Below the pieces are notes generated by a model that worked only from the letters and a program-made list of their open reading frames with translations, was not told the origin of the DNA and ran no database searches. Below are positions 1-10,646 of a stretch of 10,646 bases of DNA, piece by piece. Position numbers and translations under genes: made by a program. The stretch comes from a virus. Taxonomy: Duplodnaviria; Heunggongvirae; Uroviricota; Caudoviricetes. Position 1 is the stretch's first letter. Every line of letters starts with the position of its first letter. The stretch lies in IMG/VR virus record IMGVR_UViG_3300029459_000089; one strand, 5' to 3'.

Positions 1-3000
1 CGTACACGGTCAGCGCCTCGGTAAGCGACAAAGCGGGTAACCCGGCGACCGCCACTCACGGCCTGGCGGTGGATCTCACCGTGCCAGTTTTAACCATTAA
101 CACCGTCTCCGGCGATGACATCATTAATGCCGCCGAACACGGGCAGGCGCTGGTGATCTCCGGTTCCAGCACTGGCGGGGAAGCGGGCGATGTCATCACC
201 ATCACGTTAAACAGTAAAACCTACACTACCACGCTGGACGCCTCCGGCAACTGGAGCGTCGGCGTTCCGGCAGCAGACGTCACTGCGCTGGGCAGCGGCC
301 CGCAAACCATCACTGCGGCAATTACCGATGCGGCAGGCAACAGCGATGATGCCAGCCGCACGCTCACCGTGAATCTCACCTCGCCAACCATTGGTATCAA
401 CACTATCGCCAGCGATGACGTGATTAACGCCACAGAAAAAGGCGCGGATCTGCAAATTACTGGCACCAGTAATCAGCCCGCAGGCACCACCATTACAGTG
501 ACGCTGAACGGACAAAATTACACCGCTACCACCGATAGCAGTGGCAACTGGAGCGCCACGGTGCCAGCCTCGGCAGCTAGCGCGTTGGGTGAAGCCAACT
601 ACACGGTAACGGCGAGCGTTACCGACACGGCAGGCAACAGTAATTCCGCCAGCCATAATGTGCTGGTCAACAGCGCCTTACCTGGCGTTACCATTAACGC
701 AGTGGCAACCGATGACATTATTAATGCCGCCGAAGCGGGCAGTGCGCAAACCATCAGCGGGCAGGTGACGGGCGCGGCGGCGGGCGATACGGTCACCGTC
801 ACGCTGGGCGGCAACACCTACATCGCTACGGTGCAGGCTAATTTAAGCTGGAGTGTCAGCGTTCCGGCGGCGGATATTCAGGCGCTGGGTAACGGCGACC
901 TGACAGTTAACGCCTCGGTCACCAATGGCGTTGGCAACACGGGCAGCGGCTCGCGGGATATCACTATCGATGCCAATCTGCCTGGTTTGCGGGTCGATAC
1001 CGTAGCGGGCGATGATGTTATTAACAGCATTGAGCACAATCAGGCGCTGGTGATAACAGGTAGCAGCACCGGGCTGACGGCAGGAACGGCATTAACGGTC
1101 GTGATTAACAACGTCACTTACGCTGCCACGGTGTTAGCTGACGGTACATGGAACCTCGGCGTTCCGGCGGCAGACGTCAGCAACTGGCCTGCGGGTACGG
1201 CGGATATCACGGTAAGCGGTACTAACAGCGCTGGAACAACCTCCACCATTACCCATCCGGTTACCGTCGATCTGGCGGCGGTCGCCATAACCATTAACAC
1301 TCTCTCCGGCGATGATGTGATCAATGCCGTCGAAAAAGGCGAAACGCTGGTGGTGAGCGGCAGTACCAGCGGTGTAGAAGCCGGGCAGAGGTGACCGTCA
1401 CCTTTGGCGGCAAAAATTACACCACCACCGTGGAAGCCAACGGTAGCTGGACGGTGAATGTGCCGCCTGCCGATCTCGCTGCGTTGCCGGACGGCGCGGG
1501 CAACGTGCAGGCGAGTGTCAGCAACATTAACGGCAACAGCGCCCAGGCCGATCGCGCGTACAGCGTCGATGCCACCGCGCCGCTTGTGACCATCAACACC
1601 ATCGCCAGCGACGATATTCTCAACGTGAGTGAAGCGGGCGCGGGGATAACCATCAGCGGCACCACCACGGCGCAGGCCGGGCAGACGCTGACTGTCACGC
1701 TCAATAACAACACGTACCAGACCACCGTTCAGGCGGATGGCACCTGGAGCGTGAACGTTCCGGCGACAGATTTAAGCGGATTAACCGCCAGCAGTTATAC
1801 CGTGACCGCCACGGTGAGCGACAAAGCGGGTAATCCGGCAAGCGTCGATCATGCACTGGCGGTGGACGTTACCGCGCCGGATCTCACCATTAACACCGTC
1901 GCGGGAGATGACATTATCAACGCCATCGAACACGGGCAGGCGCTGGTGGTGAGCGGAACCAGTACGGGCGCGGCGGCAGGCGATGTGGTGACCGTCACGC
2001 TGAACGGTAAAAACTACACCACAACGCTGGACGCCTCCGGTAACTGGAGTGTGGGTATTCCGGCGGCGGATGTCACGGCACTGGCAATCGGTAGCCAGAC
2101 CATCACCGCCAGCCTGAGCGATCGCGCGGGCAACAGCGACAGCACGACTCACGATGTGACCGTTGATCTCAGTGGCCCGACGCTGACCATTAACACTGTC
2201 TCCGGCGATGACATTATTAATAATGCGGAGAAAACCCAGGATCTGATCATCAGCGGCGGATCCAGCGGTCTGGCGGCAGGCACCACGGTCACTGTGATGT
2301 TGAACGGCCTGGCGTACAGCGCCACCACCGACGGCTCCGGCAACTGGAGCGTTACCGTGCCGGCTTCGGCGGTCGGCGCACTGGGCGAGGCGGTTTATTC
2401 GATTAGCGCCAGCGCCACCGACAGCGCGGGTAACAGCGGTAGTACTACCCATACGGTGAATGTCGAATCGCTCCTGCCAGGGGTAATCATTAATACTGTG
2501 GCGGGTGATGACATTATCAACGCCGCTGAAATCGCCGTTAACCAGACCCTCAGCGGTCAGGTGACGGGGACGGCAGCAGCAGGAGATTCGGTCACTGTCA
2601 CGCTCGGCGGTAATCAATACATTGCCACCGTGCAGCCAGATTTAAGCTGGAGCGTCAGCGTGCCTGCGGTAGATTTGCAGGCGCTGGGTAACGGTGAACT
2701 GACCATCAGCGCCTCGGTGACCAATTCCGCAAATAATACCGGCACCGCGACGCACGATATCGTGATAGATGCTAACTTGCCAGGTCTGCGGGTTGATACC
2801 GTGGCAGGCGATGATGTGATTAACAGCATTGAGCACACTCAGGCACTGGTGGTCACCGGTAGCAGTAGCGGACTGGCGGCGGGCGCGGCGTTGACGGTGG
2901 TTATCAATAGCGTCACCTACGGCGCAACGGTACTCGCCGATGGCACCTGGAGCGTCGGCGTTCCGGCGANNNNNNNNNNNNNNNNNNNNNNNNNNNNNNN

Positions 3001-6000
3001 NNNNNNNNNNNNNNNNCAATATTGCCGTCTCTGGCACCAATACCGCAGGAACCACAACCAGCATTACTCATCCGGTCACCGTCGATCTTGCGGCCGTGGC
3101 GATTACCATCAACACCCTTTCCACTGACGATGTGATAAACGCCGCCGAGAAAGGCACTGATTTGCAGCTTTCCGGCACCACCTCCGGCGTGGAAGCGGGG
3201 CAGACTATTACCGTTATTTTCGGTGGCAAAAGCTACACCACCACGGTTGCCGCGGATAATACCTGGGGGCTGACGATCCCAGCAGCCGATCTCGCAACCT
3301 TGCCGGATGGCGCAGCAAACATCCAGGCCAGCGTCAGCAACGTCGCGGGTAACAACGCCCAGGCAACGCATGTTTATAGCGTCGATGCCACCGCGCCCTC
3401 CGTTACTATCAACACCATCGCCAGCGACGATATTCTTAATGCCGCCGAAGCGGGATCGGCGCTGACCATCAGCGGCACCAGCACCGCAGAAGCCGGGCAG
3501 ACAGTGACCGTGACGCTAAACGGCATCAATTACAGCGGCAACGTGCAGGCAGACGGGAGCTGGAGCGTCAGCGTACCAACTGGCGATTTAGCCGACCTTA
3601 CCGCCAGCTCCTATACGGTGAGCGCGGCGGTCAGCGACAAAGCGGGCAACCCGACCTCGGTAACGCATAATCTGGCGGTGGACCTTGCCGCTCCAGTCGT
3701 CACCATTAACACGGTAGCGGGCGATGACGTGATTAACGCCACGGAACATGCCCAGGCGCAGATTATCAGCGGCTCGGCAACGGGCGCGACGACGGGTAAC
3801 ACGGTTTCCGTGACGATTGGCACGACCACCTACACCACCGTGCTGGACGCCAACGGCAACTGGAGCATCGGTGTGCCTGCCAGCGTGATTTCCGCACTGG
3901 AGCAGGGTGATGTAACCATTACCGCCACGGTTACCGACTCCGCAGGCAACAGCGGCACGGCCTCGCACACTGTCAGCGTGGCGCTCGGTGCACCGATACT
4001 CGCCATTAACACCATCGCCGTCGATGACATCATCAACGCCACGGAGAAAGGCGCGGATCTGTCGATTTCCGGCACCAGCAACCAGCCTGCGGGCACGCAG
4101 GTAACTGTTACGCTCAACGGGCAAAATTACACCACCACTGCCGATGCTTCCGGGAACTGGAGCGTGACTGTTCCGGCGTCTGCGGTTGGTACGCTCGGTG
4201 AAGCGACTTATACGGTGACTGCCGCCGCAACCGATGTTGATGGCAATAGCGGTTCCGCCAGCCATAACGTGCAGGTTAATACCGCGCTACCGGGCGTCAC
4301 CATTAACGTTGTGGCAACGGACGATATTATTAACGCCGCCGAAGCGGGGGCAACTCAAACTATCAGCGGGCAGGTCACGAGGGCCGTGGCGGGCGATACG
4401 GTGACCGTGACGCTCGGTGGGGCGACTTACACCGCTACGGTACAGGCAGACTTAAGCTGGAGTGTCGATGTTCCGGCTTCGGCGTTACAGGCGTTGGGCA
4501 ACGGAGAGCTGACCATTTCGGCTTCGGTAACGAACAGCGTTGGCAATACCGGTAACGGCACGCGCGAAATCACCATAGACGCGAATCTCCCCGGTCTGCG
4601 GGTCGATACCGTAGCGGGCGATGACGTGGTCAACATTATCGAGCATGGGCAGGCGCTGGTGATTACCGGCAGCAGCTCTGGGCTGGCGGTGGGTAGCAAT
4701 GTCACGCTGACCATTAACGGGCAAACCTATGTTGCGGCAGTNNNNNNNNNNGGCGGATGGCACCTGGAGCGTCGGCGTTCCGGCGGTGGATGTCAGCGCC
4801 TGGCCTGCGGGGGCGGTGACGATTACGGCGAGCGGCAGCACTACCGCCGGAAACTCGGTCAGCGTTACGCATCCAGTGACTGTCGATCTCTCGGCGGTGG
4901 CGGTCAGGATCAACGCCATTACCGCCGATGATGTGATTAACGCCGCTGAAAAAGGCGCGGCATTAACGCTCTCCGGCAGCACCTCTGGCGTGGAGGCCGG
5001 GCAAACGGTCACCGTGACCTTTGGCGGTAAAACCTATACTGCAAGAGTCGCGGCGAATGGTTCCTGGAGCACCACGGTTCCGGCGGCGGATATGGCAGCC
5101 CTGCGTGATGGTGATGCCAGCGCGCAGGCCAGCGTCAGCAACGTTAACGGCAACAGTGCCACCACTACCCACGCTTACAGCGTCGATGCCACCGCGCCAA
5201 CGGTGACCATTAACACCATTGCGGGCGACGATATTCTTAACGCCGCCGAAGCGGGTGCGGCGCTGACCATCACCGGCAGCAGCACGGCGGAAGCCGGGCA
5301 GACGGTGACCGTCACGCTCAATGGCGCAAACTATACTGGCACGGTACAAACGGACGGCAGCTGGAGTATCAGCGTGCCGTCAGCCGACTTAAGCGCCCTG
5401 ACCGCCAGCAACTACACCGTTAGCGCGGCGGTGAGCGACAAAGCCGGAAACCCGGCCTCCGCTAACCATAACCTGACGGTGGATACATCCGTTCCGGTCG
5501 TCACCATCAACACGGTGGCGGGCGATGATGTGATCAACGCGACGGAACACGCCCAGGCGCAGATCATCAGCGGCTCCGCCACGGGTGCGGCAACCGGTAG
5601 CACCGTGACGGTGACTATCGGCACAAACACCTTTACCACCGTGCTGGATGCCAGCGGCAACTGGAGCGTCGGCGTTCCGGCAAGCGTCGTCTCGGCGCTG
5701 GCGAACGGCACGGTGACCATTAACGCCAGCGTCACCGACGCCGCCGGAAACAGCGGCAACGCCACGCATCAGGTGACGGTCAATACGGGTCTGCCGTCAA
5801 TTACCTTTAACGCCATCAGCGGCGATAACGTCCTGAATGCCGATGAAAAAGGCCAGCCGTTGACCATCAGCGGTAGCAGTACGGGGCTGGCGACGGGCGC
5901 ACAGGTTACCGTCACGCTCAACGGTCATAACTACAGCGCCACCACCGACGCGGCGGGCAACTGGACCTTAACCGTTCCGGTCAGCGATCTGGCGGCTCTA

Positions 6001-9000
6001 GGTCAGGCCAACTATACCGTCAGCGCCAGTGCCACCAGTGCGGCAGGCAACACCGCCAGCAGCCAGGCGAATTTACTGGTCGACAGCGGCCTGCCGGGCG
6101 TCACCATCAATACTGTGGCGGACGACGATATTATCAACGCCGCCGAAGCCGGGGCCGATCAAACCATCAGCGGAGTGGTCACTCGTGCCGCCGCAGGCGA
6201 TACGGTTACCGTGACGCTGGGTGGCAATACTTATACTGCACAAGTTCAGGCCGATTTAAGCTGGAGCGTCAGCGTTCCGGCAGCCGATCTCCAGGCGTTG
6301 GGCAATGGCGATTTGACCATTAACGCCTCGGTTACCAACGCGAATGGCAATACGGGTAGCGGCACGCGAGATATCACCATTGACGCCAACCTGCCAGGTC
6401 TGCGCGTGGATACCGTGGCGGGTGATGATATCGTCAACAGCATCGAACACGGGCAGGCGCTGGTGATCACCGGCGGCAGTAGCGGCCTGAATGCAGGCGC
6501 AGCGCTGACGGTCACCATCAACGGTGTGGCCTATGCCGCCACGGTACAGGCTGACGGTAGCTGGAGCGTTGGCATTCCGGCGGCGAACGTTAGCGCATGG
6601 CCAGCGGGGCCGTTGGCCGTTGACGTGGCAGGACAGAGCAGCGCCGGAAATCCGGTCAGCGTCAGCCATCCGTTCACCGTCGATTTAACGGCGGTGGCGA
6701 TCAGCATCAACACCGTTGCCAGCGACGACGTGATTAACGCCGCCGAGAAAGGCACCAATCTGACCCTTTCCGGCAGTACCAGCGGGATTGAAAGCGGGCA
6801 AACCGTCACCGTCACTTTTGGCGGCAAAACCTACACCGCAAGCATCGCCGCCAACGGAAGCTGGAGCGTGAATGTTCCGGCGGCAGATCTGGCATCTCTG
6901 CCAGACGGCGCGGCGAATGTACAGGCCAGCGTTAGCAGCGCGAGCGGCAACAGCGCCTCGGCGACCCATGCGTATAGCGTTGACGCCAGCGCACCGACGC
7001 TCACCATAAACACCATCGCCAGCGACGATATCCTTAACGCCACAGAGGCCGGAAGCCCGCTCACCATCAGCGGTACCAGCACCGCCGAAACCGGGCAGAC
7101 GGTCACCGTCACTCTTAACGGTGCAACCTACAGCGGCACTGTACAGGCGGATGGTAGCTGGAGCGTCAGCGTTCCCACTTCAGCCTTAGGCGCGCTAACC
7201 GCAAGCAATTACACCGTCAGCGCCACGGTCAACGACAAAGCAGGCAACCCCGGCAGCGCCAGCCATAATCTGGCGATAGACACCACCGCGCCGGTTCTTA
7301 CCATTAACACCGTCGCAGGCGATGACATCATCAACGACGCCGAACACGCCCAGGCGCTGGTGATTTCCGGCACCAGTACCGGCGGGGAAGCGGGCGATGT
7401 GGTGAGCGTTGTGCTCAACGGCAAAACGTATACCACGACGCTGGATGCCTCCGGCAACTGGAGCGTTGGCGTACCGGCGGCGGATGTTACGGCACTGGGT
7501 AGCGGCGCACAGACCATCACCGCCAGCGTCAGCGATCGGGCGGGTAACAGCGACGACGCCAGCCGCACCGTGACCGTCAGCCTCAGCGCGCCAGTGATTA
7601 GCATCAACACCATCGCGGGCGATGATGTGATCAACGCGATGGAAAAAGGATCAAATCTGGCGCTTTCCGGCACCAGCGATCAGCCTGCGGGTACGGCGAT
7701 CACCGTGACGCTGAATGGACAAAACTACAGCGCCACCACCGATGCCTCCGGCAACTGGAGCGTTACCGTGCCTGCCTCGGCAGTCAGTGCGCTGGGCGAA
7801 GCGACATATAGCGTCACGGCGAGCGTCACCAACGCCCAGGGCAACAGCAGTACTGCCAGCCATAATGTGCAGGTCATTACCGCGCTGCCGGGCGTCACCA
7901 TTAATCCGGTGGCGACGGACGATATTATCAATGCTTCAGAGGCGGGCAGCGCGCAAACTATCAGCGGCCAGGTAACCGGGGCGGTGGCTGGCAGCACCGT
8001 CACCGTTGAACTGGGTGGTAAAACTTACACCGCCACCGTCCAGGCTGATTTAAGCTGGAATGTAAGCGTACCAGCCGCTGACTGGCAGGCGTTAGGTAAC
8101 GGTGAATTAACGGTTAATGCCTCGGTGACCAACGCCGTTGGCAACACCGGCAGCGGCATGCGTGATATCACCATCGATGCCAGTCTGCCCGGTCTGCGGG
8201 TGGATACCGTCGCGGGCGATGATGTGGTCAATATCATCGAACACGCTCAGGCGCAGGTGATTACCGGGAGCAGCTCTGGCTTTACGGCAGGCACGGCGCT
8301 GACCGTGGTGATAAATAACCAAACTTATGCCGCCACGGTGTTGGCGAACGGCAGCTGGAGCGTCGGCGTTCCGGCGGCGGATGTCAGTAACTGGCCTGCG
8401 GGAACGCTGAATATTACCGTTAGCGGCGCGAACAGTGCCGGAACGCAAACCAGCATTACCCATCCGCTGACCGTTGATCTCACTACCGTTGCCATCAGCA
8501 TTAACGCTATTACCCCTGATGATGTGATTAACGCCGCCGAAAAAGGCGCGGCGCTAACGCTTTCCGGCAGCACGTCCGGCGTCGAAGCGGGGCAAACCGT
8601 TACTATTACCTTTGGCGGCAAAACCTACACCACCACGGTGGCGGCAAACGGTAGCTGGAGCACCACCGTTCCGACTGCGGATTTGGCGGCTTTGCGTGAC
8701 GGCGATGCCAGCGCCCAGGTGCGGGTGACTAACGTCAACGGCAACAGCGCCACGACAACGCATGAATACAGCGTCGATAGCGCCGCGCCAACGGTGACCA
8801 TCAACACCATTGCCAGCGATAACATCATCAACGCCAGCGAAGCGGCGGCGGGCGTCACGGTGTCCGGCACCAGCACCGCGGAAACCGGGCAGACGCTGAC
8901 CGTCACGCTTAATGGCACTAACTACCAGACCACGGTGCAGGCAGACGGCAGCTGGAGCTTAACGCTGCCTGCCAGTGACCTAACCGCACTTGCCAATAAC

Positions 9001-10646: not shown

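Follow-up and report, generated by a model that had tools for sequence, protein, structure and literature searches.

A 10.6-kb array of Ig-like modules assigned to the interior of siiEA, a giant type 1-secreted adhesin gene of Escherichia coli

The stretch of DNA analysed here, 10,646 nt from the virus record IMGVR_UViG_3300029459_000089 (the window; G+C 60%, 57 N), is with very little doubt an internal fragment of siiEA, the gene for a giant RTX-type adhesin of a type 1 secretion system (T1SS), which belongs to the ybaT–cueR island of Escherichia coli (O-island 28, OI-28, of O157:H7). The fragment encodes 35 immunoglobulin (Ig)-like extender modules. What was observed directly is the open frame, the homology of the modules, the colinear alignment to intact alleles and the presence of T1SS genes next to siiEA in these. 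The feature itself is already known, both as a curated NCBI family and from a locus that was studied experimentally in 2025.

Results

The sense frame and its colinearity with siiEA

Four overlapping open stretches on the plus strand tile the window from edge to edge, at positions 3–1391 (frame 3), 1316–3124 (frame 2), 2895–4928 (frame 3) and 4711–10644 (frame 1). Spliced at three disruptions they form a stop-free frame of 3,526 sense codons, which bears out the initial annotation of more than 3,500 codons in one sense frame broken at three places. The remaining frames have 86–203 stops each and the longest open stretch on the minus strand is 286 codons, so that the 1,978-codon open stretch far exceeds what would be expected by chance.

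A protein comparison with giant adhesins, which had been suggested as a check, gave E. coli entries as the nearest proteins, with identities of up to 96%; they are named “Ig-like domain-containing protein”, “BapA-related adhesin SiiEA” and “type 1 secretion protein”. In a DNA search, 959 of 5,426 complete E. coli genomes gave a match, always on the chromosome, and most of the listed records name the matched gene siiEA. The closest genome is that of E. coli R32_14_1F, which is 99.4% identical over window positions 8500–10646. The window is colinear with the siiEA gene of this strain throughout, with nucleotide identities of 97.7% over 1–2968 and 95.7% over 3017–10646. The R32_14_1F gene is an intact coding sequence (CDS) of 20,775 nt encoding 6,924 aa (5700–26474 of locus L031), of which the window represents about codons 1,942–5,483. 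The gene of O55:H7 CB9615 is also intact, at 20,778 nt (L032 5173–25950). Homologous genes are 20.5–21.7 kb long and the full gene is thus, as initially supposed, well over 10.6 kb.

Among GTDB representatives the best matches were Escherichia sp. E1V33 (97%) and E. ruysiae (96%). A plasmid-borne gene was considered and rejected, since the plasmid collection yielded only matches to two E. coli chromosomes wrongly filed in it and a 119-nt match to Rahnella. The last 400 aa encoded by the window have relatives, at 60–91% identity, in Pseudocitrobacter, Salmonella enterica strain s1, Buttiauxella, Lelliottia, Cedecea, Rosenbergiella, Pantoea and E. whittamii; the adhesin family is widespread in Enterobacterales.

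Family assignment and structural homologues

Between the disruptions the frame falls into four segments, all on the plus strand, whose translations were compared with profile hidden Markov models at curated cut-offs of 50 bits for the NCBIfam families Ca_tandemer (NF033510, “Ca2+-stabilized repeat-containing adhesin”) and Ig_like_ice and 27 bits for the Pfam family Big_13 (PF19077). The first segment (3–1388, frame 3, 462 codons) runs past the left edge of the window and contains modules 1–4 and the start of module 5; it scores 395 bits with Ca_tandemer in 5 stretches and 87 bits with Big_13 in 4, and aligns with the R32_14_1F locus (L031) from 11524 onward at 97.7% identity. The second (1391–2968, frame 2, 526 codons), which was likewise aligned to R32_14_1F, contains modules 5–10. 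The third (3018–4739, frame 3, 574 codons; modules 10–16) scores 503 bits with Ca_tandemer (6 stretches) and 98 bits with Big_13 (5 stretches). The last and longest (4753–10644, frame 1, 1,964 codons; modules 16–35) runs past the right edge and aligns with L031 14525–22147 at 95.7% identity. In its 1,964 aa Ca_tandemer scores 1,749 bits over 20 stretches, Ig_like_ice 848 bits and Big_13 367 bits over 17 stretches. The proposed search against bacterial Ig-like families thus returned three of them far above their cut-offs.

A search of the PDB with a 600-aa super-repeat as query and a threshold of E ≤ 0.01 found the RII tetra-tandemer of the Marinomonas primoryensis protein MpAFP (4P99, E = 1.3e-62), an RTX adhesin (5IRB, E = 5.6e-42), 4KDV (E = 1.8e-14) and the Marinobacter Lap adhesin (6XI3, E = 1.9e-9). 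With the cut-offs passed in many tandem copies and with homology to a solved Ca2+-bound beta-sandwich, the feature is assigned to the tandem Ig-like repeat adhesins, whose Ca2+ stabilisation is predicted for it. No chain of Salmonella SiiE (BIg50–52, bacterial Ig-like domains) was matched in the PDB at this threshold, nor was there a SiiE-type family among the Pfam and NCBIfam matches of the window segments, and a direct relation to SiiE at the level of sequence was rejected for want of such a match. The repeats are therefore of the MpIBP-RII/BapA (Big_13) kind and not detectably of the SiiE kind, and “Sii” in the gene name denotes an analogy rather than a detectable homology of repeats. Of the likeness first drawn to the repeats of BapA, SiiE and LapA-type proteins, the part concerning BapA (Big_13) and Lap (6XI3) is supported, while that concerning SiiE is undetected in sequence.

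The modules and their super-repeat

Anchored on the motif D(D/N)xxN, the frame resolves into 35 tandem modules of ~100 aa with a period of 297–303 nt. D1, N5, E8, G17, G26 and the tryptophan W48 are invariant in all 35 modules, and D2 is kept in 32 of the 35. The ~100-aa modules with a conserved Trp that had been described from the sequence are thus found as described. Ala, Thr, Val, Ser and Gly abound in the protein, which has no Cys and is acidic (278 Asp + Glu vs 54 Lys + Arg).

Modules that lie 6, 12 or 18 positions apart are on average ~69% identical and every other lag gives 44–48%. These peaks define a super-repeat of six modules (~1.8 kb), five copies of which make up modules 1–30 (114–9114, plus strand), with unit boundaries at the DD(I/V)IN anchors at 114, 1907, 3723, 5524, 7321 and 9115. 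Modules 31–35 (9115–10646, plus strand) lie outside the super-repeat and are mostly divergent, modules 31 and 33 being ~60% identical to one earlier module type. This stretch ends ..GINIDSLQADTGLSASDF, where the C-terminal non-repeat region starts in the full-length gene. These identities suggest that the array was built up by duplicating the six-module block, which leaves no two neighbouring domains alike.

The module periodicity was recovered from the protein anchors and not from Tandem Repeats Finder (TRF), whose search of the window for tandem DNA repeats, up to a period of 500 nt, was negative. The blank result arises because adjacent modules are only ~45% identical in amino acid sequence and the 1.8-kb period of the super-repeat is above the TRF limit.

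The G+C content of 60% rises to 71% at third codon positions. That of the E. coli chromosome is roughly 51%. The high G+C and the Ala/Gly/Thr/Val-rich composition fit a horizontally acquired island. The antisense open reading frames (ORFs) are treated here as by-products of the GC-rich sense frame; the six longest (149–278 aa) have no Pfam match, and a search of both strands of the window found no Rfam family. There is no further feature hidden in the window besides the siiEA frame, and no separate novel system, of which the initial annotation had likewise seen no evidence.

The T1SS locus and the ends of the intact gene

The gene order ybaT / TolC-family / siiEA / T1SS permease-ATPase (ATP-binding cassette, ABC) / HlyD adaptor / cueR is the same in all five complete genomes inspected (A16, 042, R32_14_1F, CB9615 and Sakai), and the giant ORF of Escherichia sp. 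E1V33 is succeeded by one ORF of ABC size and one of HlyD size. Scores of the neighbours exceed the curated cut-offs, with 412 bits for the outer-membrane protein (TIGR01844, cut-off 225), 837 bits for the exporter, which is of the LssB/LapB type (TIGR03375, cut-off 693), and 328 bits for the adaptor (TIGR01843, cut-off 209). These are the T1SS genes that the initial annotation had advised looking for in the flanking DNA, found here around the homologous siiEA of five E. coli genomes.

The ends of the protein, which lie outside the window, were examined in the intact R32_14_1F allele and supply both the C-terminal secretion signal and the N-terminal module whose presence had been put forward as a check. 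At its start are the 229-aa N-terminal signature adhesin_SiiEA (NF047714, 510.5 bits, cut-off 425), BapA_N (PF22783, 65 bits) and biofilm_BapA_N (NF033677, 71 bits). Towards its C-terminus are FG-GAP-like repeats (FG-GAP_3), HemolysinCabind (23.2 bits, cut-off 23), T1SS_VCA0849 (33.6 bits, cut-off 17.6) and, near the end, RTX nonapeptide repeats GGNDTLNIGNGGHDTL.

No autotransporter or sortase feature was found in the intact R32_14_1F protein. It is true that Ig-like repeats also occur in giant proteins of other secretion classes (inverse autotransporters of the intimin type, Sec-dependent or sortase-anchored proteins) and that the window has no terminus to judge by, but such a class is wildly improbable here, since every close homologue is part of a T1SS operon and has RTX and T1SS target domains at its end, the protein is acidic with no Cys, and no invasin/intimin-type family is among the Pfam matches of the window segments. 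The autotransporter or sortase class is effectively refuted by that T1SS linkage and C-terminus.

A short gene for a YadA-like trimeric autotransporter adhesin lies on the opposite strand 1–2.5 kb past cueR in every locus inspected (L031 32208–33224, L032 30403–31419, L001 39702–40751); a second adhesin therefore adjoins the island.

The gene in O157:H7

OI-28 of enterohaemorrhagic E. coli O157:H7 has been described as z0608 (tolC28), z0609 and z0615, encoding two RTX proteins (rtxA28/rtxB28), z0634 (hlyB28) and z0635 (hlyD28) (PMC12758282). Deletion of OI-28 and mutation of its single genes reduced epithelial adherence and mouse colonisation; the island is directly activated by RstA, and extracellular Ca2+ raises both its expression and the adherence that it mediates (PMC12758282, 2025).

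In O157:H7 Sakai the annotation of the adhesin has two CDSs, ECs_0541 of 4.4 kb (L033 6355–10740) and ECs_0542 of 15.9 kb (L033 10948–26823), with 207 nt between them. Because O55:H7 CB9615 and R32_14_1F carry a single intact CDS of ~20.8 kb in the same place, the two RTX proteins of the 2025 paper look like the halves of a split siiEA, of which the upstream one would have no C-terminal secretion signal.

The three disruptions

Two of the disruptions are runs of N, 47 at 2970–3016 and 10 at 4742–4751, both probable placeholders of scaffold gaps. In R32_14_1F the first stands for ~33 nt of module 10 (11 codons, ..ADVTNWPAGT..) and the second for ~3 nt of module 16. The apparent changes of frame at them come from the placeholders, whose lengths are arbitrary and unequal to those of the real sequence. 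A 30-mer encoding DGTWSVGVPA is the longest exact repeat of the window; one copy (2939–2968) directly precedes the first N run and the other (4756–4785) begins 4 nt past the second. The copies are 1,817 nt apart, that is, one super-repeat. Since both runs adjoin this repeat, they are most likely contig breaks at a shared k-mer, followed by scaffolding, in a short-read draft.

The third disruption is a frameshift at 1389–1391 (plus strand), where one C is missing with respect to the intact allele (CAG A-G GTG vs CAG ACG GTG), the window having GGGCAGA-GGTGACC at ~1390/1391 and R32_14_1F GGGCAGACGGTGACC. A TGA arises at 1392–1394 in the old frame. As the deletion is outside any homopolymer run it is not surely technical, and as splits or frameshifts are seen in several E. 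coli alleles it is possibly real. It may be a consensus or assembly error of the draft, or a real mutation that inactivates or splits the gene. The initial view that all three disruptions are technical therefore holds for the two N runs and lacks certainty for the 1-nt deletion.

If the deletion is real, this copy is a pseudogene or a split gene, giving an N-terminal fragment that lacks a secretion signal, and a C-terminal one at most by reinitiation, as in O157:H7. We regard this as a tentative possibility that deserves to be taken seriously. Besides the position of the deletion away from any homopolymer, a GTG at 1391 directly follows the shift, the Sakai gene is split into ECs_0541 and ECs_0542, and siiEA is flagged as a pseudogene in A16 (“frameshifted”, L001 12267–33936) and in 042 (“frameshifted; internal stop”, L002 7377–28154). 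Disrupted siiEA alleles, or assembly errors in them, are common even in finished genomes. On the other hand, a consensus error is equally plausible in a draft scaffold with N gaps in a repeat region, there is no further stop or decay across the 3,526 codons, and the O157:H7 proteins are split at a different point. None of the 120 database proteins among the matches listed starts or ends at the frameshift of the window.

The adjacency of both N runs to the longest exact repeat, one super-repeat apart, together with the disagreement between their lengths and those of the real sequence, could also mean that 1.8-kb super-repeats were collapsed or mis-joined there and that the true number of units differs from that in the window. 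We think such an artefact in the order or copy number of segments improbable, because the alignment to the finished R32_14_1F chromosome runs colinearly through both gaps and neither loses nor duplicates a unit, and because the copies of the super-repeat, at ~70% amino acid identity, are different enough to be placed uniquely.

A more elaborate proposal, to which we likewise give little credence, has two parts. In the first, the deletion at ~1390 would be genuine, and the recurrent splitting of siiEA (here and in O157:H7, 042 and A16) would mark a tolerated or selected two-piece or phase-variable adhesin. The second part concerns the N-terminus of the intact R32_14_1F protein, outside the window, where a di-alanine motif, TAAG, occurs within FADTAAGGLAP at ~aa 97–100 (L031 5700–6599). 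It fits the pattern (T/P)AA(G/V) that LapG cleaves in LapA-type adhesins and is a candidate site of that type. The adhesin would be released there by a LapG-like protease novel to E. coli.

Discussion

Proposed mechanism

In the mechanism that we propose for SiiEA, the full protein would be threaded C-terminus first and unfolded through its dedicated T1SS (LssB/LapB-type ABC, HlyD adaptor and TolC-family channel), the export signal being carried by the C-terminal RTX and T1SS target domain. Acidic and free of Cys, it would stay unfolded in the low-Ca2+ cytoplasm. Outside the cell it would fold upon binding Ca2+ within and between modules, and Ca2+ would stiffen the chain, making of it a rod a few hundred nanometres long. 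The stalk would be the repeat region, that is, the 35 modules of the window and others on both sides of them. Such a rod would hold the distal C-terminal region, with its FG-GAP-like and other domains, off the cell surface, where it would contact the host, and the N-terminal BapA-prefix/SiiEA module would keep the protein plugged in the outer-membrane channel. We infer this N-terminal retention.

The model for the stalk is region II (RII) of MpIBP, for which crystal and small-angle X-ray scattering data show that Ca2+ within and between the repeats rigidifies the chain into a rod (PMC4083281), and the ligand-binding end is thereby held at a distance from the cell (PMC4083281, PMC7493085, PMC5550230). 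Extrapolating from the ~45 Å spanned by each RII repeat (PMC4083281), the 35 modules alone would extend ~0.16 µm. Indirect support for Ca2+-dependent folding of the modules comes from the invariant D1 and E8, the D2 kept in 32 of 35 modules, the excess of Asp + Glu, and the Ca2+-dependent adherence due to OI-28 (PMC12758282).

Several points weigh against the assignment to a functional siiEA stalk. The window holds neither an end of the gene nor a neighbour, and its membership of a T1SS locus is presumed from colinear alleles that are 96–98% identical. The best match to a GTDB representative is 97% and no identical protein is among the 120 matches listed. The identity to the solved RII repeat is moderate only, and it is by homology to MpIBP RII that Ca2+ binding, rigidity and the role of extender are ascribed to the SiiEA modules. 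Finally, the frameshift at ~1390, if real, parts the N-terminal portion from the C-terminal secretion signal, and the copy might be non-functional.

We regard the finding that the window is a piece of siiEA, a catalogued virulence-associated adhesin gene, as settled and as raising no new question. Its practical use lies in annotation, as an example of how a repeat gene of 21 kb fragments in drafts, with N gaps where a 30-mer recurs and with a possible frameshift, and it explains labels such as “Ig-like domain-containing protein, partial” for such fragments.

Comparison with known systems

Salmonella SiiE, from which the gene takes its name, is like SiiEA a giant (>5,000 aa), T1SS-secreted, Ca2+-binding enteric adhesin of BIg repeats, but the repeats of the two give no sequence match (BIg50–52, E ≤ 0.01). 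Salmonella pathogenicity island 4 (SPI-4), which encodes SiiE, carries the accessory genes siiA and siiB, and between ybaT and cueR there is no annotated counterpart of these.

The Pseudomonas LapA-type adhesins share with the siiEA locus an ABC exporter of the LssB/LapB subfamily (the TIGR03375 match above), which is named lapB in Sakai, and a Lap adhesin is among the structural matches (6XI3). LapA-type adhesins are controlled by LapG and LapD, whereas neither lapG (a BTLCP protease) nor lapD is annotated in the 36–49-kb neighbourhoods of siiEA in A16, 042, R32_14_1F, CB9615 and Sakai, to which this search was limited.

Salmonella BapA has a BapA prefix-like N-terminal domain, as has the full-length homologue of the window, Big_13-type repeats and secretion by a T1SS, and NCBI names SiiEA “BapA-related”. 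BapA is set apart by its size of ~3,800 aa, about half that of SiiEA, and by a different gene order in its operon.

MpIBP/MpAFP region II (PDB 4P99 and 4KDV; Ig_like_ice) resembles the SiiEA repeats in its ~100-aa Ig-like modules with the N-terminal motif ..TVNAITSDDVINASEA.. and a (G)xW core, and both proteins are T1SS RTX adhesins with an extender region. The two differ in that MpIBP has ~120 identical 104-aa repeats and SiiEA has diverged modules (~45% between neighbours) arranged in a six-module super-repeat. Their ligand-binding regions also differ, SiiEA being without the ice-binding domain.

The closest relative is the SiiEA/OI-28 RTX adhesin of E. coli itself (z0609/z0615, that is rtxA28/rtxB28; ECs_0541/ECs_0542; NF047714), which is the same gene, with 96–98% nucleotide identity and the same order of modules. 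The split of the O157:H7 gene is at another place than the deletion in the window. With respect to the closest finished genome (95.7–97.7% identity), the window copy is an allelic variant of siiEA that carries a 1-nt deletion and two assembly gaps.

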